Source: a virus. From it: 64,000 nucleotides of DNA. Numbering within the stretch: position 1 is the first letter of the stretch; every line of letters starts with the position of its first letter. The position numbers and the translations under genes were made by a program. Positions 58,201-64,000 of this stretch are shown here, piece by piece. The stretch is taken from positions 1 through 64,000 of the IMG/VR virus record IMGVR_UViG_3300033153_002115. One strand, 5' to 3'. The notes beneath the pieces are model-generated. The model searched no databases. It was not told the origin of the DNA and worked only from the letters and a program-made list of their open reading frames with translations.

Positions 58201-60006
58201 GCAGTAAACTATGCTGCAGGTAAAGATAATAAAAAAGAAATAACAGATCCAGTTACAGGTAAAACTGTAAAAGTACTGGATAAAGGAGTACAAACCTTAG
58301 AGTCTTTAATATCTAAGGAAATGAAAAACATACACGAAGTTAGGGAGTTAAATCCACAACAAATTAGAGAGTTATCTGCCGAAGATAGAGCTGAGATATA
58401 CCGAGAAGCATCGGATATTGTAATGAAGAGTCATAGTGGTGATATATTTAAAGCCCTTAACTCATTAAATCTTGCGGCTCTTTCTTATGGATATAAATCT
58501 GCTATTAAACCTGAAATAGATATGGCTCTCCACTACTTAGAGCAAATGGAAGCAGGTATATCGGATGAAGAGTTCAGTTTTGGTGATATAGATAGTAAAG
58601 ATGTAGGCAATGTTAAAGACATGGTAGACTACTTTATCGACAGAGAATACTTCGATATAGGAAACCAGGATAAGTCGATGAAACTGCCGATTTCTGTCTA
58701 TACATCGGATGAAAAGAGAAGAAGAAAGCAATTGTTAGAACAATTAGAAAGACTAGCTACAGATCAAACTCTAAAAGGTAAAACTACAAAGAAACGTCTT
58801 GAAACAGAATTAAAAGAAATCGGGCGTAATGTAACAGTGAATTCTATCCTTAAGAGTTTAATGGATTTTATGAGAATATCTACAATGGGGTGGAATATAC
58901 AGTCAGCTATTGCTAACTTTATGCAAGGTCAGATAGTAAATATAATACATGCCGCTGAAGGGAAATTGTTTACTTGGGAAACTTTAAAAGCAGCTTATTC
59001 TACAGTATTTACAGAAAAGTTCGATAATATTATAAAGAACTACGCTGTTCTTGGTGATATTATGTATGATTTTGAACGTAAGAACCCATTCGAAAAGAAA
59101 AAAGGGGTTTTCGGTAAAATAAAAAGCGCTGTAATGCCTTACGCTGGTACAAAAATAGCCGAAAAATTGAATCAAGGTAACATAACTGTTGCTATGTTAA
59201 TGCATATGCAAGTACAAGATAAAAATGGTAATGATATAAGCATTTGGGATGCTATAGATGATAAGGGGACTTTATCAAAAGAATACACATTTAATGGACA
59301 GAAAGGAGACGCAGCTATAGCAGAAGTTATTATACCTATAAGAGATCAAATAAACTTAATTCATGGTGACTATAATAACGCTAAATTACTTGGTAAAACT
59401 ATTGTAGGTAAAGCAGCATCGATGTTTCATTTATGGTTTTTTGAACCATATCATGCGCATTTTGGAGCAAGAAAATATAATGCTATTTTAGGTAGAGAAA
59501 CAAGAGGACGTGTATTATCGGCTATGGAATTAATCCCAAAATACGGATTAAGTTATAAAAAAATGCGACAAGCTAGAGCAACCGAGAAAATAACTGAAGT
59601 TGATCTTAATAATATAAAAGTACTTTTTATGGAACTTAGTGCTATAGCTGTTACAGGGTTACTATCTCTATTAGCTAAAGCTACTTTATGTAATGATGAA
59701 GAAACCAAATGTGGTGGTGTAGGGACTACTTATCTAGTTAATACTCTTAATCGTATAGCAAGAGAAGTAAAAACATTTACAGATCCTACTGCATATTATG
59801 ATCTTGTAACGAATCCTGTCGCTGTAGCTAGATACCTTAAAAGTATAGCTAGGATATTCCAGTATATGAGTGATGCGGCAGCAGGAGAGGATATGGATAA
59901 TAAAGATGGGGATAATAAAATACTTATAACTTTAAGTAAAGAATTCCCTATATTAAGAAGATTAATTATTGAACGTGATTTAATGGAAAATATTAGAAAT
60001 TATTAA
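55258..60006 (+). CDS. large virion cargo/polyvalent protein
   Basis: 1582 aa; EFIEKFGDW...NEPKL N-terminal motif; helical C-terminus with hydrophobic segments. Confidence 0.7.
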   Translation: MQCLNINLPSIRKNLDDLTKLTGDKEVAYATLASNNGYTMKQTMTGKVSSLYNELEAISNIPEEAEILKMNVHSSEFIEKFGDWRNLKQGRLNTDNEPKLFTETGKYYYIGEKNKRISIKVNKPASFKKVAPLTSEETNNALKKQYTKDTEGPIKKGSFVSFKSKDGGITDAMVYKVNPNGSFNLFNTTTVTKDHIGILQNKTPRQLTKKGDYHTIGGAKGKPEVLVLYANKDRKEPLILNIKDKISVNKQSSNIQQNYIDAAVQYGLSKEPTIKPTETVETKPLHTDKDKVFVHAENVQEVDEVKAGIDEDISNGVKVFMVLPPQFANQHDMAISAYLTDMDWVYNVNEGVAYFAKPKAKIPTTESQKVPGPTQSFSKRTPGTITDSKGNLHKLGTLAANMIQFLQEKRQDALPYLRQGKQLVSKIERALLKAVPDATLFIYNKIPEVVLANRQLKERIATDSKDPRIRQVTGSDNIDLYNSLMYDLYTETVHRAMQLDRKVPGKGGSFNLRSDHIQAKLRNDIRSLEERKLNLQNTGAANKDIDAVTTEINDINAILEQDVEEYNLKTLKDIAKTDLAKARRILAKENISPDEFVRAKNILQNWIDVGNFEDTDKNIFLDESQAVNPEIQKDFKEIANEAESIKDTSLNNKGRNLITSKISSTLNKVFNFNDITKLKNKVNGWFKTVFSIAKVDNPTVAYIMKTINTAAKKAEVKAITESNHLAELYETLRQKGFDFELFWQKDKDGTVTGNLVSEYTSEYLKRLRNFKRGYGRLSDYKNDNVFIDVSRLAGASTLAIEKYVEELTPIIGRDKAISAVAEADMLFKRYMEIKDHYLMAEFGVENEEELEAGSEEASRMLQWKIQNSPAIRAAAIDKANTGTFNEIQGAAADRFLVTVPKKFDENGKPTELYDDTFTSITEDTDAAAFYKRAYEITKKAKEHFNTSGMTEYALGAIQNTILEEYQEHGIKEFTKKTLWDNAVNYAAGKDNKKEITDPVTGKTVKVLDKGVQTLESLISKEMKNIHEVRELNPQQIRELSAEDRAEIYREASDIVMKSHSGDIFKALNSLNLAALSYGYKSAIKPEIDMALHYLEQMEAGISDEEFSFGDIDSKDVGNVKDMVDYFIDREYFDIGNQDKSMKLPISVYTSDEKRRRKQLLEQLERLATDQTLKGKTTKKRLETELKEIGRNVTVNSILKSLMDFMRISTMGWNIQSAIANFMQGQIVNIIHAAEGKLFTWETLKAAYSTVFTEKFDNIIKNYAVLGDIMYDFERKNPFEKKKGVFGKIKSAVMPYAGTKIAEKLNQGNITVAMLMHMQVQDKNGNDISIWDAIDDKGTLSKEYTFNGQKGDAAIAEVIIPIRDQINLIHGDYNNAKLLGKTIVGKAASMFHLWFFEPYHAHFGARKYNAILGRETRGRVLSAMELIPKYGLSYKKMRQARATEKITEVDLNNIKVLFMELSAIAVTGLLSLLAKATLCNDEETKCGGVGTTYLVNTLNRIAREVKTFTDPTAYYDLVTNPVAVARYLKSIARIFQYMSDAAAGEDMDNKDGDNKILITLSKEFPILRRLIIERDLMENIRNY

Positions 60007-60007
60007 G

Positions 60008-60093
60008 AAGAGAGGATGGGATTCGAACCCACGGAGCTTTTACACCCTCTGATTTAGCAAACCAGTGCAATAGACCAACTCTGCCACCTCTCT
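60008..60093 (-). tRNA. tRNA-Ser(GCT)
   Basis: Cloverleaf; anticodon arm CTGGT-TTGCTAA-ATCAG; long variable arm. Confidence 0.9.
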
Positions 60094-60098
60094 TTATG

Positions 60099-60169
60099 AG
60101 ATGCCGGTCAGGATCGAACTGACGAACGGAGCTTTGCAGGCAACTACCTTACCACTCGGTTACAGCATC
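60099..60169 (-). tRNA. tRNA-Cys(GCA)
   Basis: Loop CTGCAAA, U73; anticodon stem has two mismatches. Confidence 0.8.
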
Positions 60170-60172
60170 ATG

Positions 60173-60244
60173 CACAGGGAGTAGGATTCGAACCTACAAA
60201 CTACGCTTTTGGAGAACGCTTGCCACACCTATAACTGCCCCTGT
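60173..60244 (-). tRNA. tRNA-Trp(CCA), atypical D arm
   Basis: GCGTT-CTCCAAA-AGCGT; T arm GTAGG-TTCGAAT-CCTAC. Confidence 0.8.
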
Positions 60245-60247
60245 ATT

Positions 60248-60329
60248 GTGCCTCACGAAGAATCGAACTTCCTAGTCATTAGACACCAGATTTACAGTCT
60301 GGTCCTGATCCCACTCAGCAGACTCGGCA
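60248..60329 (-). tRNA. tRNA-Tyr(GTA), mismatched acceptor stem
   Basis: CCAGA-CTGTAAA-TCTGG; variable arm present. Confidence 0.75.
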
Positions 60330-60333
60330 TTAG

Positions 60334-60418
60334 AGGAAAGTGTGGGATTCCAACCCACAAGACTTTGACATCCTACTGGTTTTCAAGACCAGGCCCTCGT
60401 GCACCACGGACACTTTCC
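60334..60418 (-). tRNA. tRNA-Ser(TGA), atypical
   Basis: CTGGT-CTTGAAA-ACCAG; long variable arm; T loop TTGGAAT. Confidence 0.8.
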
Positions 60419-60423
60419 TTATG

Positions 60424-60496
60424 TGGAATCAGATAGACTCGAACTACCGTCTCAAGATCTTCAATCTCGTGCTATTGCCTCCTCAGCTATGATTCC
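60424..60496 (-). tRNA. tRNA-Phe(GAA)
   Basis: CGAGA-TTGAAGA-TCTTG. Confidence 0.88.
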
Positions 60497-60501
60497 ATTA
60501 G

Positions 60502-60576
60502 TGCGGAAAGAGAGACTCGAACTCTCAGAACTCTGGAGCCTAAATCCAGCGACTTTACCTATTTGCCCACTCCCGC
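60502..60576 (-). tRNA. tRNA-Leu(TAG), short variable region
   Basis: CTGGA-TTTAGGC-TCCAG. Confidence 0.85.
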
Positions 60577-60582
60577 ATTTTG

Positions 60583-60669
60583 TGCACCTGGTGAGAGTCG
60601 AACTCACAAGACCATCACTGATCACTGGGGCTTAAACCCAGCGCGTTTCTCCAGTTTCGCCACAGACGC
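60583..60669 (-). tRNA. tRNA-Leu(TAA)
   Basis: CTGGG-TTTAAGC-CCCAG; long variable arm. Confidence 0.9.
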
Positions 60670-60673
60670 ATAT

Positions 60674-60709
60674 AAACCAGAAAGACCCTACTCGTTAAAG
60701 TAAGGTCTT
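60674..60709 (-). terminator. attenuator terminator of tRNA array 2
   Basis: AAGACCTTACT-TTAACG-AGTAGGGTCTT followed by TCTGGTTT, just before tRNA-Leu(TAA). Confidence 0.8.
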
Positions 60710-60740
60710 AGTACTATATTGTATTATTTATATAGCTATC

Positions 60741-60800
60741 CTAATCCCTTACCGAAGTAAGCAGCGACCAGAAACTAAATAAATAACATGTTGTTTTCAT
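60741..60800 (-). CDS. leader peptide 2, MKTTCYLFSFWSLLTSVRD
   Basis: ATG AAA ACA ACA TGT TAT TTA TTT AGT TTC TGG TCG CTG CTT ACT TCG GTA AGG GAT TAG; codons match the 8 downstream tRNAs. Confidence 0.85.
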   Translation of the reverse strand: MKTTCYLFSFWSLLTSVRD

Positions 60801-60813
60801 AAAATGTTATATT

Positions 60814-60839
60814 AAAACCGGTTAAATTAATAACCGGCC
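60814..60839 (-). terminator. intrinsic terminator-like hairpin upstream of leader 2
   Basis: GGCCGGTTA-TTAATT-TAACCGGTT followed by TT. Confidence 0.55.
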
Positions 60840-60910
60840 TTTACAATTTAAAGTGTCAATCAGGTTTTGCACCCCTGTTTTACATGACAAACTCGTTGTT
60901 TTTGCGGTAA

Positions 60911-60942
60911 CAAATATACACCTTATATATTATACAACCAAA
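60911..60942 (-). promoter_or_regulatory. Bacteroidota sigma-A promoter (TTTG-N20-TATATTTG)
   Basis: Both -33 and -7 boxes at consensus spacing, between the two arrays. Confidence 0.7.
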
Positions 60943-60948
60943 TAAAAG

Positions 60949-61021
60949 TTACCCCGGCTGGATTCGAACCAGAATTACAAGGCTCAAAACCTTGTGTGCT
61001 TGCCGTTTACACTACAGGGCA
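60949..61021 (-). tRNA. tRNA-Gln(TTG)
   Basis: CAAGG-TTTTGAG-CCTTG. Confidence 0.88.
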
Positions 61022-61026
61022 ATATG

Positions 61027-61099
61027 AGAAGGTGAAAGGAATCGAACCTTCAACCTCCGAATTCGTAGTCCGGGGCTCATCCATTTGAGCTACACCTCC
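61027..61099 (-). tRNA. tRNA-Arg(ACG)
   Basis: CCGGA-CTACGAA-TTCGG. Confidence 0.9.
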
Positions 61100-61104
61100 A
61101 TTAG

Positions 61105-61177
61105 TGATGCCTCTGGGTTTCGAACCCAGGCTCTTCGCATTAAAAGTGCGAGGCTTTACCAACTAAGCTAAGACACC
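61105..61177 (-). tRNA. tRNA-Lys(TTT)
   Basis: TCGCA-CTTTTAA-TGCGA. Confidence 0.9.
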
Positions 61178-61294
61178 TGATAAATAGAATATCTATACTC
61201 CTTTATCGGTGCGGCCAGTTCTCCGTACATCTCTACGACCTCCAAGCCTCTTGAATTAACACTATACATAACATTTAATTTTAATTAATACTAG

Positions 61295-61369
61295 TACTGC
61301 CAACGAGGCTCGAACTCGCATCTTCCAGGATGAAAACCTGACGTCCTACTCCATTTAGACTACAGCAGC
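61295..61369 (-). tRNA. tRNA-Glu(TTC)
   Basis: TCAGG-TTTTCAT-CCTGG. Confidence 0.88.
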
Positions 61370-61380
61370 ATATAATTTAG

Positions 61381-61452
61381 AACCCCTACCGAGAGTCGAA
61401 CTCAGGACTTGGGTTTAGAAGACCCACGCTTTTCCAGTTAAGCTATAAGGGT
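61381..61452 (-). tRNA. tRNA-Arg(TCT)
   Basis: TGGGT-CTTCTAA-ACCCA. Confidence 0.9.
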
Positions 61453-61457
61453 ACCTG

Positions 61458-61531
61458 TAGGGATGGCAGGAATTGAACCGACGCTCTCCCGGATATCAGC
61501 CGGGCACTTTAACCAACTAAGCTACACCCCC
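61458..61531 (-). tRNA. tRNA-Ile(GAT)
   Basis: CCCGG-CTGATAT-CCGGG. Confidence 0.85.
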
Positions 61532-61536
61532 ATATG

Positions 61537-61612
61537 TTGACCTGGGCGGATTCGAACCGACGACTTCTTCCTTGTAAGGGAAGCACTCTGAACCAGACTG
61601 AGTTACAGATCA
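61537..61612 (-). tRNA. tRNA-Val(TAC)
   Basis: CTTCC-CTTACAA-GGAAG. Confidence 0.9.
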
Positions 61613-61617
61613 ATTTG

Positions 61618-61691
61618 CGGACTGGTAAAGATTCGAACTTTACATACTTTCTGATATTCATCAGATTTTCTTTCCCGTTAATTTACAGCCC
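61618..61691 (-). ncRNA. tRNA-like RNA without a readable anticodon (pseudo-tRNA)
   Basis: Acceptor GGGCTG/CAGTCC and T arm intact; anticodon arm TCTGA-TGAATA-TCAGA has a 6-nt loop. Confidence 0.6.
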
Positions 61692-61698
61692 AATATAG

Positions 61699-61774
61699 CG
61701 GTCCCGGAGGGTATCGAACCCTCGTTTTTCTAGCGTGACAGGCTAGATCCCCGGCCATTGGGGCTCACGAAACC
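61699..61774 (-). tRNA. tRNA-Asp(GTC)
   Basis: CTAGC-CTGTCAC-GCTAG; G73. Confidence 0.88.
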
Positions 61775-61778
61775 ATTG

Positions 61779-61852
61779 TGGGCAATGCTGGATTTGAACC
61801 AACGACCTTCTCCTTATGAGGGAGCTGCTCTACCTGACTAAGCTAAAAGCCC
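61779..61852 (-). tRNA. tRNA(CAT), probably Ile2 (lysidine, reads ATA)
   Basis: CTCC-CTCATAA-GGAG; body resembles bacterial tRNA-Ile2 (GGTCG.TGGTTCAA.TCCAGC). Confidence 0.75.
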
Positions 61853-61857
61853 AAAAG

Positions 61858-61932
61858 TTGCGGGAGTGAGAATCGAACTCACGTTAATCTTGCTTATGAG
61901 ACAAGGCTGGAACCCCTCCAGACCACCCCGCA
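61858..61932 (-). tRNA. tRNA-Met(CAT)
   Basis: CTTGT-CTCATAA-GCAAG; lacks the three G-C anticodon-stem pairs of initiators. Confidence 0.8.
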
Positions 61933-61939
61933 ATATAAG

Positions 61940-62033
61940 ATCAGGTGTCGCACCTAAAGACTTACTTAAATCCAGCTCGGAACTGCAATCTATTTATCTT
62001 AGCGATACAAGGGAATCGAACCCTTCACCTAAT
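61940..62033 (-). ncRNA. permuted tRNA-like structured RNA
   Basis: Terminal stem ATTAGGTG/CACCTGAT enclosing a 5'-located T arm AAGGG-TTCGATT-CCCTT. Confidence 0.55.
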
Positions 62034-62034
62034 G

Positions 62035-62107
62035 AGCCTCCGACAGGAATCGAACCTGTTATCCTCTGATTACAAATCAGTAGCTTCGCCAGCAAAGCTT
62101 AAGAGGC
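62035..62107 (-). tRNA. tRNA-Thr(TGT)
   Basis: CTGA-TTTGTAA-TCAG. Confidence 0.88.
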
Positions 62108-62156
62108 ATAATTGGTCGGTGTTTTTATACAGGTACCAACCAAGAGCCTGTCTTCG

Positions 62157-62230
62157 AGCGAGTAGACGGGATCAAACCGACTCTAATCCTGGTTGGAAGC
62201 CAGGTGCACCATCATTTATGCGTTACTCGC
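62157..62230 (-). tRNA. tRNA-Gly(TCC)
   Basis: CCTGG-CTTCCAA-CCAGG; U73. Confidence 0.85.
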
Positions 62231-62235
62231 TTATG

Positions 62236-62307
62236 CGGAATGAGATGGATTCGAACCAACGTACATCTGCTTAACAGGCAGGCGCTAAGCCGCTTAGCTA
62301 TCATTCC
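62236..62307 (-). tRNA. tRNA-Asn(GTT)
   Basis: CTGC-CTGTTAA-GCAG; G73. Confidence 0.88.
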
Positions 62308-62311
62308 TTAG

Positions 62312-62383
62312 TGGAGCCGAAGTGAATCGAACACTCGTAACTCTGCTTGCAAGGCAAAGCTTCTAACCAACAAGACCAACCCC
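62312..62383 (-). tRNA. tRNA-Ala(TGC)
   Basis: TTTGC-CTTGCAA-GCAGA; G3.U70 identity pair present. Confidence 0.88.
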
Positions 62384-62385
62384 AT

Positions 62386-62461
62386 TGGGTGTATGATGAG
62401 ACTCGAACTCACTTCAACTGGAACCACAATCCAGCCCCTCGGCCACTTCGGGATCATACAC
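62386..62461 (-). tRNA. tRNA-His(GTG)
   Basis: CTGGA-TTGTGGT-TCCAG; G-1:C73; encoded CCA. Confidence 0.9.
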
Positions 62462-62463
62462 AG

Positions 62464-62537
62464 TAGGGTGAGTCAGATTCGAACTGACGGACCGGTGATT
62501 CCAAATCACCGTAGTATAGCCTCTGCAATACCACCCT
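62464..62537 (-). tRNA. tRNA-Pro(TGG)
   Basis: GGTGA-TTTGGAA-TCACC. Confidence 0.88.
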
Positions 62538-62541
62538 ATAT

Positions 62542-62579
62542 AAAACAAAAAAGACCTTCCTGTTTAGTCGGAAAGTCTT
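62542..62579 (-). terminator. attenuator terminator of tRNA array 1
   Basis: AAGACTTTCC-GACTAAACA-GGAAGGTCTT followed by TTTTGTTTT, ending 4 nt before tRNA-Pro. Confidence 0.85.
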
Positions 62580-62609
62580 ACTTGTGTTATTTTATATTAT
62601 ACGATAATA

Positions 62610-62687
62610 TCACATAGCAAGAGCCCTCCCACGAATTGTATCCGCCTTCGGCTGCTCGACTGTATGTATATTATTCATTGTTCTCAT
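62610..62687 (-). CDS. leader peptide 1, MRTMNNIHTVEQPKADTIRGRALAM
   Basis: ATG AGA ACA ATG AAT AAT ATA CAT ACA GTC GAG CAG CCG AAG GCG GAT ACA ATT CGT GGG AGG GCT CTT GCT ATG TGA; codons match the 16 downstream tRNAs. Confidence 0.87.
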   Translation of the reverse strand: MRTMNNIHTVEQPKADTIRGRALAM

Positions 62688-62691
62688 GTTG

Positions 62692-62699
62692 CAAATATA
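62692..62699 (-). promoter_or_regulatory. Bacteroidota -7 box (TATATTTG) 4 nt upstream of the leader 1 ATG
   Basis: TATATTTG-CAAC-ATG. Confidence 0.7.
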
Positions 62700-62785
62700 T
62701 ATAAAAGATTCGATTTTAAAGTCCTTTAGAATGAATTATTTTAAAATTTCTTACCTATGATACTGTTAGATTGATTCTCAAAGGG

Positions 62786-64000
62786 TTAGATATGCCCACC
62801 TGTAGACCATTTAGTATATAATGCCTGACTTGATGCTAATGAGAAATTTCCTGGTAAAGTAGTCGGCTGAATACTTAACCATAACTCATCTCCAAAATCA
62901 CCATCTCTTCTTGCTATCATTTCTGACACATCTAATAACGCTTGGAAAGTAATCTTTTCATCTAACACGGCAGCTTTACTTATAACTATACTATTTGAAT
63001 TGGTTATAGGAGCACCAGGTTCTGAATAAGTAATAGGATCACCATCTTTTAACCATCCCCAACGTACAGTCCATTCATAAGTTCCTGTAGAATTTGCATG
63101 CCCACTCCACATTAATTTAATAGGACTTGAAGTATCAAGATCAAAAGGCAGAAATCCACTAACACCTAATATATCACCTGTAGCTGTAAATTTGTTATTT
63201 GTTAATCCTGCTCCTATATCTTCACTTATATATAAAGTCTGACTCTGCATACTACCTTCAAAAGGTTTACCAGAAGCTAAGTTCAAACCTAATTGTGCTT
63301 CAGGTCTAGCTGTACCAAAGAACTCTATCCAACCATCACCATTTACCTCAAGTCTGTTTGAATGCACTTTCCATTGTTCGAATACAGGAGCTGTAGTAAT
63401 AGTTGCTGTAATTCTATATCGTATCCAATAATAATCTACACCTAATACAGGTGTTATAGGATCATTCTTGGCCCACCCATCATTTTGTAGTACACTATCA
63501 TATCTAATTTGAGTAGAGCCTACAGCCTGGAAAATGTTTTTAGCTTTTGGGTAATACTTTCCACCAGAATCTGCTTCCATTACATTAAGTTCAACCCAAA
63601 CACTTCCATTCCAGTATTCTGTAACAATATTTCCTGTACCAAAAACTGCAGCTAAAGTAACTTTTGTTTTAATACCATAATGATGTAGAACATCTACAGT
63701 ATCAGCACGCATACTTGCTATATATATAGCAGAATCGGCGTCTAAATTAGGGAACGTAAAAGTAGATCCACTAGCAGATTTAGCCGCAGCAGAAACATCC
63801 ACAAAAGAAGCACCATCATAAGTATACACTACCATACCGGCAGTATAACTATCTCCTTCACCAAACACACTTTCTGCTGGTATCCCTGGACTTCCTACGT
63901 GTAACTCGCCAAGAATATTTAACCCTTCATCATCTTCACTTACATCCAGTATATAAACATAAAAACCAGCTCCAGGTATGACGTAGCTGTTATTGATCTC
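62786..64000 (-). CDS. 5'-truncated beta-rich protein (fibre/structural-like)
   Basis: The frame of ORF 62786..63868 stays open to the window end; EYWNGSVWVEL and YYWIRYRI motifs. Confidence 0.6.
   Translation of the reverse strand, partial: EINNSYVIPGAGFYVYILDVSEDDEGLNILGELHVGSPGIPAESVFGEGDSYTAGMVVYTYDGASFVDVSAAAKSASGSTFTFPNLDADSAIYIASMRADTVDVLHHYGIKTKVTLAAVFGTGNIVTEYWNGSVWVELNVMEADSGGKYYPKAKNIFQAVGSTQIRYDSVLQNDGWAKNDPITPVLGVDYYWIRYRITATITTAPVFEQWKVHSNRLEVNGDGWIEFFGTARPEAQLGLNLASGKPFEGSMQSQTLYISEDIGAGLTNNKFTATGDILGVSGFLPFDLDTSSPIKLMWSGHANSTGTYEWTVRWGWLKDGDPITYSEPGAPITNSNSIVISKAAVLDEKITFQALLDVSEMIARRDGDFGDELWLSIQPTTLPGNFSLASSQALYTKWSTGGHI

Follow-up and report, generated by a model that had tools for sequence, protein, structure and literature searches.

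How might a phage decide when to transcribe tRNA genes of its own? To our knowledge, little has been described of phage control over phage-encoded tRNA genes, and the usual view is that such genes are transcribed constitutively, as passengers of early or late transcripts. The question is raised by IMG/VR virus record IMGVR_UViG_3300033153_002115, a phage genome of 98,468 bp with 35% G+C whose first 64 kb (64,000 nucleotides, referred to as the window) form the stretch analysed here. On the minus strand, past a structural gene ending at 62786, this phage carries 24 tRNA genes in two arrays. Directly ahead of array 1 (16 tRNA genes, 14 amino acids) lie a short open reading frame (ORF), here called leader 1, and an intrinsic terminator. 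We consider it highly likely, on the basis of the sequence comparisons and modelling described below, that leader 1 acts as a ribosome-mediated transcription attenuator of the trp/his/ilv type which controls read-through into the 16-gene tRNA operon. The tRNAs of array 1 would then probably be made only when ribosomes decode the leader codons slowly. The attenuator mechanism itself is already known; what appears to be new is the application of leader-peptide control of the trp-operon type to tRNA genes.

In leader 1, each of the 16 tRNAs of array 1 is represented by one or more cognate codons. The translated ORF agrees with the first-pass annotation, made from the sequence alone, which had described a 25-codon peptide with all 14 array 1 amino acids. 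The more detailed statements made there hold as well: both isoacceptor pairs are sampled (ATA and ATT for the Ile tRNAs of CAT and GAT type, AGA/AGG and CGT for Arg-TCT and Arg-ACG), Cys, Phe, Ser, Trp and Tyr are absent, and the single Leu codon lies inside the segment able to pair with the terminator. By exact calculation, 24 random codons would include all 16 classes with a probability of 1.2e-4 if drawn at phage codon usage, or of 3.5e-5 if drawn at base composition; requiring in addition no more than one foreign codon lowers these values to 1.3e-5 and 4.4e-7, respectively. Among 693 ATG-initiated ORFs of 12-45 codons in the six frames of the whole genome, leader 1 alone covers 16 of 16 classes, the runner-up reaching 15 in 34 codons. 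The look-elsewhere factor is small, since the stretch from the upstream gene to tRNA-Pro contains no other minus-strand ORF of at least 20 codons. The signal is full class coverage together with a near-absence of foreign codons, not composition. A run of 11 consecutive different residues, highlighted in the annotation, is indeed present but would by itself not be remarkable (P = 0.11). Its interest comes solely from coinciding with the antitermination window identified by simulation (see below), and under a design reading no codon is repeated there because that window is too short for 16 codons. Leader codons 10-15 (62634-62658, minus strand; GTC, GAG, CAG, CCG, AAG and GCG) are rare synonyms, accounting for 5-29% of their families in the phage, and would be decoded through wobble by phage U34 anticodons, a choice that may enhance sensitivity or may only supply the G+C required in segment 1.

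The leader 1 RNA can form three alternative helices. Folding of the 163-nt RNA gives -43.9 kcal/mol (z = -5.1) and a structure composed of a long hairpin and the terminator. In the long hairpin (1:2), codons 4-13 form one side and codons 19-25, together with the stop codon and 3' flank, the other. The terminator (3:4) comprises a 10-bp GC-containing core (62579-62570 with 62560-62551) plus extensions, a 9-nt loop and a U-rich tract reaching to 62538; tRNA-Pro begins at 62537, and the terminator end falls 4-7 nt short of it. Segment 2, which harbors the leader 1 stop codon and forms the 5' strand of the antiterminator (2:3), includes GGGAGG, a mimic of the terminator 3' arm. The pairing of 62630-62616 with 62582-62570 that had been proposed earlier is found at exactly these positions, although the helix is longer and comprises 17 pairs; additional pairs are contributed by UGUG (end of the last codon and start of the stop codon) with CACA. 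Including its inner hairpin, the antiterminator reaches -21.2 kcal/mol versus -16.5 kcal/mol for the terminator and is therefore competitive with it, one of the points on which the annotation had let its proposal stand or fall. When segment 2 is replaced by dinucleotide-preserving shuffles, none of 400 is as stable (shuffle mean -9 to -11 kcal/mol, z about -5). All 16 nt of the terminator 5' arm are sequestered by the real segment 2, which is the case in none of the 400 shuffles. Leader 1 thus shows the structural elements of trp/his/ilv-type attenuators, namely a 5' ORF, matched codons, a 1:2 hairpin, a terminator and a mutually exclusive antiterminator.

To simulate ribosome stalling, the mRNA was masked as far as +10, +13 or +16 nt, counted from the first base of the codon in the A site, and the unmasked remainder was folded, both before emergence of the terminator 3' arm (kinetic) and at equilibrium. 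With codons 2-7 in the A site, the complete antiterminator forms before the 3' arm emerges (-25 kcal/mol, ten core 5'-arm bases paired), whereas the equilibrium probability of the terminator, P(terminator), is high because the free segment 1 can capture segment 2. From codon 8 or 9 to codon 16 (His, Thr, Val, Glu, Gln, Pro, Lys, Ala and Asp), the complete antiterminator is found at -19 to -25 kcal/mol and P(terminator) is 0.02-0.5. From codon 17 or 18 up to the stop codon, the antiterminator is lost and equilibrium P(terminator) rises to 0.98-0.99. The expectation that a ribosome reaching the stop codon masks segment 2 and permits termination is borne out in the simulation, with P(terminator) at 0.93-0.99. 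These limits of the on/off stall window are robust to the three footprints. The leader had been described as sampling all 16 tRNAs; codons for all 16 are present, however, the model senses only 9 of them robustly and up to 13 kinetically, so that 9-13 of the 16 tRNAs are plausibly sensed by leader 1.

As to the promoter and start, the translation of the leader, the stalling-dependent read-through and the physiological trigger, we infer the following scheme. Transcription would start at or next to the ATG, driven by the -7 box, and a ribosome would translate the 25-codon leader as RNA polymerase heads to the terminator. Scarcity of charged tRNAs for codons ~8-16 would make the ribosome stall on segment 1, and kinetically the earlier Arg-AGA, Thr, Met, Asn and Ile-ATA codons would cause the stalling response as well. 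Segment 2 would then pair with the terminator 5' arm, no terminator would form and array 1 would be transcribed. With fast decoding, the ribosome would arrive at the stop codon inside segment 2 and mask it, allowing the terminator to form and to stop transcription 4-7 nt before tRNA-Pro; if the leader were not translated at all, 1:2 pairing would likewise favour termination. Since the operon products are themselves the sensed molecules, such a circuit would hold a defined set of tRNAs at a steady level by direct negative feedback. Candidate triggers are late-infection codon-usage demand, host tRNA decay and tRNA-targeting defence.

A functional reading of leader 1 is most strongly supported, at the level of sequence comparison, by related cassettes. 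The window phage itself encodes a sister module ahead of array 2. The codons of its leader 2 match array 2, and ten consecutive array 2 codons fall exactly in the antitermination window of that leader. Further promoter-leader-terminator-tRNA cassettes, with other tRNA partitions, are found in Cellulophaga phages phi17:2 and phi4:1, in Maribacter phage Panino and on IMG/VR contigs. In total, 16 modules including the window were compared; L-numbers are the labels of the comparison records, and the IMG/VR contigs (L021, L027, L032, L038, L098, L102, L104 and L117) were located by a promoter-plus-start pattern. Phages phi17:2 (L002) and phi4:1 (L003) carry three cassettes, and Panino encodes the three phi17:2 cassette types at two loci (L005 and L004). 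Leaders and arrays of representative modules are listed in Table 1.

A terminator (-11 to -19 kcal/mol) immediately precedes the first tRNA in all modules, and in 14 of the 16 the leader contains a codon for every tRNA class of its own array. For the 8 distinct partitions, the true leader-array pairing is the best of 40,320 permutations. Leader codons and tRNAs also move together. Relative to phi17:2 and Panino, the two Leu tRNAs of the window phage have changed to the Tyr/Ser/Trp/Phe/Cys array and Asn to the other array, and the Leu and Asn leader codons have moved along with them; the type of Arg codon used in leaders (CGN or AGR) tracks the Arg isoacceptor present. Array-matching codons are concentrated in the leader heads (154 of 208 versus 60.6 expected) and are near background in the tails, that is, the last eight codons that encode segment 2 (50 of 128 versus 35.7). 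The segment 2 of the tails is often GGGAGG-like, mimicking the terminator 3' arm. Leader 1 has four cassette features, specifically, a box ~4 nt before the ATG, full coverage, a terminator within ~10 nt of the tRNA and segment 2 mimicry, all of which recur among the 15 comparison modules, full coverage with the frequency given above. It is the most multivalent leader of the set. When segment 2 sequences were paired with own and foreign terminator arms across the 16 modules, own arms gave a mean of -10.8 versus -7.6 kcal/mol, and the own arm ranked 1-2 wherever that arm is distinctive. Since CCCTCC-type arms are common to many modules, the power of this swap test to discriminate is only moderate, and leader 1 ranks 3 of 16. 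A similar arrangement is seen in phiCbK, in which annotated terminators lie directly 5' of the tRNA blocks. One leader of this GC-rich phage has F, V, I or Q at 9 of 12 central residues ahead of an array of Phe, Val, Ile, Ile, Val, Gln and Gln; the leader match of the remaining two tRNA blocks is less clean. The ORF and the agreement of its codons with the array, the three alternative helices and the energies computed for them, and the recurrence with covariation in other phages are all in silico observations.

The promoter-like box upstream of leader 1, TATATTTG, has a sequence that we take to fit the Bacteroidota -7 consensus TAnnTTTG. By analogy, its placement implies a start at or next to the AUG and thus probably a leaderless or nearly leaderless leader mRNA. 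The promoter assignment draws on the same box-N4-ATG layout in other phages, where it is also found before the leaders of the Cellulophaga and Maribacter phages. IMG/VR matches to the pattern box-N4-ATGAAAAYA open an ORF of >60 aa in 70 of 114 cases, compared with 19% of all ATGs in the window-phage genome that open at least 60 codons, which argues that box-N4-ATG marks genuine translation starts in that phage group.

Several observations weigh against attenuation by leader 1 as outlined here. The first-pass annotation had cautioned that stalls at late codons may not antiterminate, and in the model stalls at ATT (18), CGT (19) and GGG (20) indeed do not; these are the sole codons of their kind in the leader and lie in its tail, where stalls favour termination. 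Codons 2-7 antiterminate only kinetically, before the 3' arm emerges, and not at equilibrium. The 14 amino acids of array 1 account for 76% of background codons, which makes the composition of leader 1 weak evidence when taken alone. At the promoter, the -7 motif TANNTTTG is not enriched in the window (74 matches versus 77.5 expected), and the box-ATG layout does not mark gene starts in the genome of the window phage. Leader 1 lacks a Shine-Dalgarno sequence, as expected for a Bacteroidota host, the host itself being proposed from tRNA similarity. The third leader of Panino (L004 4630-4731) contains six Cys codons and no tRNA-Cys was detected in its array or record; the tRNA may have been lost before the leader was re-tuned, or may simply have escaped detection. 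Further, no close relative with leader 1 was found that would permit a direct test of conservation or synonymous change: queries with the convergent 1582-aa protein and with the tRNA-Pro anticodon-arm pattern gave no match, and a search with the pattern box-N4-ATGAGAACA returned protein-gene starts only.

The breadth of leader 1 invites the explanation that it is a general translation-stress attenuator which reports overall elongation or amino acid supply and not the tRNAs encoded downstream. Attenuators sense charged tRNA and are also triggered by starvation, as established for trp and his, and a leader with 14 amino acids comes close to a generic codon sample in view of the background share given above. 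The presence of two complementary leaders in one genome, together with array-matched partitions elsewhere that extend down to the isoacceptor level, makes this explanation unlikely in our view. The logic could also be reversed, with efficient leader translation promoting read-through by pyrBI-like coupling or a block of Rho, so that abundant tRNA would lead to more tRNA. Such mechanisms are established in enterobacteria, but here the ORF ends 24 nt before the terminator 5' arm and a ribosome reaching about +12 nt cannot melt the terminator. Given also the high P(terminator) of a ribosome at the stop codon and the location of that codon inside the antiterminator strand, we regard reversed logic as very improbable.

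Even less credence can be given to a coincidental ORF, with the hairpin merely ending the transcript of the upstream structural gene and the tRNAs being expressed from leaky read-through or an unrecognised promoter. It is true that no separate terminator is visible between 62786 and leader 1, and that the leader 1 promoter is supported at the motif level only. Against this stand a codon coverage with P of about 1e-5, the uniqueness of leader 1 among the small ORFs of the genome, a significant antiterminator that spans the stop codon, and an architecture seen again ahead of array 2 and, with leaders that covary, in three or more other phage lineages. No more credible is a functional product, in which case the 25-residue peptide or the ~150-nt terminated leader RNA would act in trans and the composition would be incidental. 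Trans roles are known for some attenuator RNAs and leader peptides, trpL of Sinorhizobium being an example in the part of that literature considered here. Homologous leaders, however, keep their composition while residue order is shuffled, and leaders differ wholly between array types, which fits codon sampling and argues against a functional peptide. Attenuation in response to slow decoding of the sampled codons thus continues to be the reading that we favour for leader 1.

Table 1 Features of the leader 1 locus, its sister module and representative cassettes of other phages. Positions without an L-number refer to the window.
Feature	Position	Strand	Description
Promoter-like -7 box TATATTTG	62692-62699	-	4 nt upstream of leader 1 ATG; assigned from sequence and motif match
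Leader 1 ORF	62610-62687	-	25 sense codons plus TGA (62612-62610); one foreign codon (CTT)
Segment 1:2 hairpin	62601-62678	-	-24.0 kcal/mol alone; minimum-free-energy fold; candidate anti-antiterminator or pause hairpin
Segment 2 (antiterminator 5' strand)	62611-62632	-	Codons 19-25 plus first two stop-codon bases
Segment 3 (terminator 5' arm)	62567-62586	-	Alternative partners: segment 2 (17+2 pairs) or segment 4
Intrinsic terminator (3:4)	62545-62585	-	-16.5 to -17.1 kcal/mol
tRNA array 1 (regulated genes)	60948-62537	-	16 tRNAs, 14 amino acids, four non-tRNA spacers; ARAGORN and Rfam
tRNA-Gly(TCC), array 1	62157-62230	-	Rfam match only, 41.5 bits
Sister module	60676-60800	-	Leader 2 ORF 60800-60741 and terminator 60712-60676, ahead of array 2
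tRNA array 2	60669-60007	-	8 tRNAs: Leu x2, Phe, Ser x2, Tyr, Trp, Cys
tRNA-Tyr, array 2	60250-60328	-	Weak Rfam match (24 bits, Sec model); assigned from GTA in anticodon loop
phi17:2 cassette	L002:1865-1933		Leader centre Q-R-L-H-L-Q-E-L-E-Q-P; array Pro, Glu, Gln, His, Leu, Leu, Arg-ACG
phi17:2 cassette	L002:2825-2908		Leader rich in T, K, G, I, V, D, A and AGA-Arg; array Ala, Lys, Ile, Gly, Met, Asp, Thr, Val, Arg-TCT, second CAT tRNA
phi17:2 cassette	L002:4384-4482		Leader N, Y, C, S, W, F; array Tyr, Ser, Ser, Asn, Trp, Phe, Cys
IMG/VR contig cassette	L032		Leader L, Y, S; array Tyr, Leu, Ser, Ser, Leu
IMG/VR contig cassette	L104		Leader N, F, D; array Asp, Asn, Phe
IMG/VR contig cassette	L038		Leader N, Q, S, Y, F, H, E; array Tyr, Asn, Gln, Glu, Phe
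IMG/VR contig cassette	L117		Leader S, T, Y, L; array Leu, Leu, Ser, Tyr
IMG/VR contig cassette	L102		Leader Y, S, C, F, W; array Tyr, Trp, Phe, Ser, Ser

The tRNA genes were detected with ARAGORN (22 of 24, including 15 of the 16 in array 1) and then Rfam; tRNA-Gly and tRNA-Tyr are missed by ARAGORN even at relaxed thresholds. The order of array 1 is Pro, His, Ala, Asn, Gly, Thr, CAT, CAT, Asp, Val, Ile-GAT, Arg-TCT, Glu, Lys, Arg-ACG and Gln. Neither of the two CAT tRNAs shows initiator features, and one of them is presumably a lysidine Ile tRNA. Arrays 1 and 2 have zero amino acids in common. The six amino acids that have codons beginning with U (Phe, Leu, Ser, Tyr, Cys and Trp) are served by array 2, which also includes the CUN-Leu and AGY-Ser partners of these families, and array 1 holds the remainder; this split is not universal, as partitions differ in other phages. 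Between tRNA-Asp and tRNA-Val, a tRNA-like element with an aberrant two-base anticodon (61617-61691, minus strand) is reported by ARAGORN at a relaxed threshold only and is not reported by Rfam; either tRNA decay or a structured spacer may account for it. Three further spacers of array 1 (61178-61293, 61933-62033 and 62108-62156, minus strand) are non-tRNA stretches of 49-116 nt, and a terminator combined with a leader-like ORF is found in none of them. The space between the arrays contains another perfect TATATTTG box (60918-60911, minus strand). About 70 nt past it lies a GC-rich hairpin with a T-run (~60842-60814), followed by the start codon of leader 2 (ATG, 60800), which lacks a good -7 box of its own. 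Leader 2 may be transcribed from the upstream box through the hairpin, or by read-through out of array 1.

Among GenBank phages, the nearest tRNA matches are found in Cellulophaga and Maribacter phages, and on this basis the host likely belongs to the Flavobacteriia. The structural protein encoded upstream of leader 1 has one relative in IMG/VR (57% identity) and two in metagenomes (57% and 39%), the two 57% relatives appearing to be one contig. None of the relatives found via this protein carries tRNAs at the matching site. In the nearest one (57%; L001 / L006 5227-5250), the structural gene is followed by a protease-like gene and head genes. The window phage therefore appears to have acquired the tRNA cluster, attenuators included, by insertion. 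A PHROGs search with the flanking proteins returned nothing useful. Two features of the comparison phages are also worth recording. In Panino (L005 1887-2036), the -7 box is separated from the leader of the Ala-Lys-Ile-Gly array by a hydrophobic ORF of 49 codons, so that this leader is not at the transcript 5' end. Contig L117 encodes, near its leader-gated array, a CTA-anticodon tRNA (amber-reading; called Pyl by ARAGORN) and an Ile-TAT tRNA (1140-1212 and 311-384), the former of which may be a sign of stop-codon reassignment or suppression.

Similar to the enterobacterial trp, his, leu and phe leaders, as well as those of ilvGMEDA (Ile/Leu/Val) and thr (Thr/Ile), leader 1 is a short ORF with regulatory codons followed by 1:2, 2:3 and 3:4 helices. 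As in those operons, the terminator immediately precedes the first gene under control, and masking of segment 2 is predicted once a ribosome has arrived at the stop codon. The differences are equally clear. Enterobacterial leaders contain runs of one to three amino acids, whereas leader 1 takes in as many as 16 tRNAs (14 amino acids), most of them with a single codon, and its mRNA is probably leaderless and transcribed from a Bacteroidota-type -7 box. All described leader-peptide attenuators regulate enzymes or synthetases, while leader 1 would gate tRNAs and so sense the product of its own operon. The pheST operon, with its pheM leader, is a case of leader-peptide attenuation of a cellular translation-apparatus gene that responds to the level of charged tRNA. 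There the target is the synthetase for one amino acid in a cell, here it would be the tRNA genes themselves in a virus. T-box riboswitches also couple tRNA status to a choice between terminator and antiterminator in a 5' leader, however, they bind uncharged tRNA directly and do not need translation. No Rfam leader family, T-box or other cis-regulator matched in 59500-63000 at E values up to 1, the matches in this region being confined to the tRNA clan and weak plastid-untranslated-region noise.

No published account of leader-peptide attenuation of tRNA genes was found in a full-text literature search. The nearest published case is the trn operon of Anabaena PCC 7120, a long accessory tRNA array that is kept low and induced by impaired translation (PMC8421152, PMC10272220). 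This operon is controlled by the protein repressor TrcR, and neither of the two papers makes any mention of attenuation, a leader peptide or a terminator. Leaderless polycysteine short ORFs in mycobacteria act as attenuators that provide a codon-specific sensor for downstream genes; in the portion of that preprint available to us, they concern one amino acid and protein-coding targets, with no intrinsic terminator ahead of tRNAs (bioRxiv 10.1101/834739).

A wider version of the attenuator reading, which we offer tentatively and hold to be rather doubtful at present, views the modules as a general, modular phage device in which each unit is a tRNA-depletion sensor for its own set. Such sensors would replace host tRNAs withdrawn by, for example, anticodon nucleases or host tRNA decay in infection, and the cassette would be exchanged between phages and re-tuned as tRNAs move. 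If this were true, leader 1 would be the most multivalent attenuator known, responding to up to 16 tRNAs and 14 amino acids. On the main attenuator reading itself, the phage would gauge decoding speed codon by codon and replenish only those tRNA sets that are in shortage. The codon set of a leader would constitute a sequence signature that predicts the tRNAs of one transcription unit, and leader 1 would represent a natural multi-input attenuator design. The attenuator model is directly testable in cultured systems, specifically, Cellulophaga baltica with phi17:2 or phi4:1 and Maribacter with Panino. It bears on the question of why phages carry tRNAs at all, be it for compensation of codon usage, in response to host tRNA degradation or as an escape from tRNA-targeting defence.

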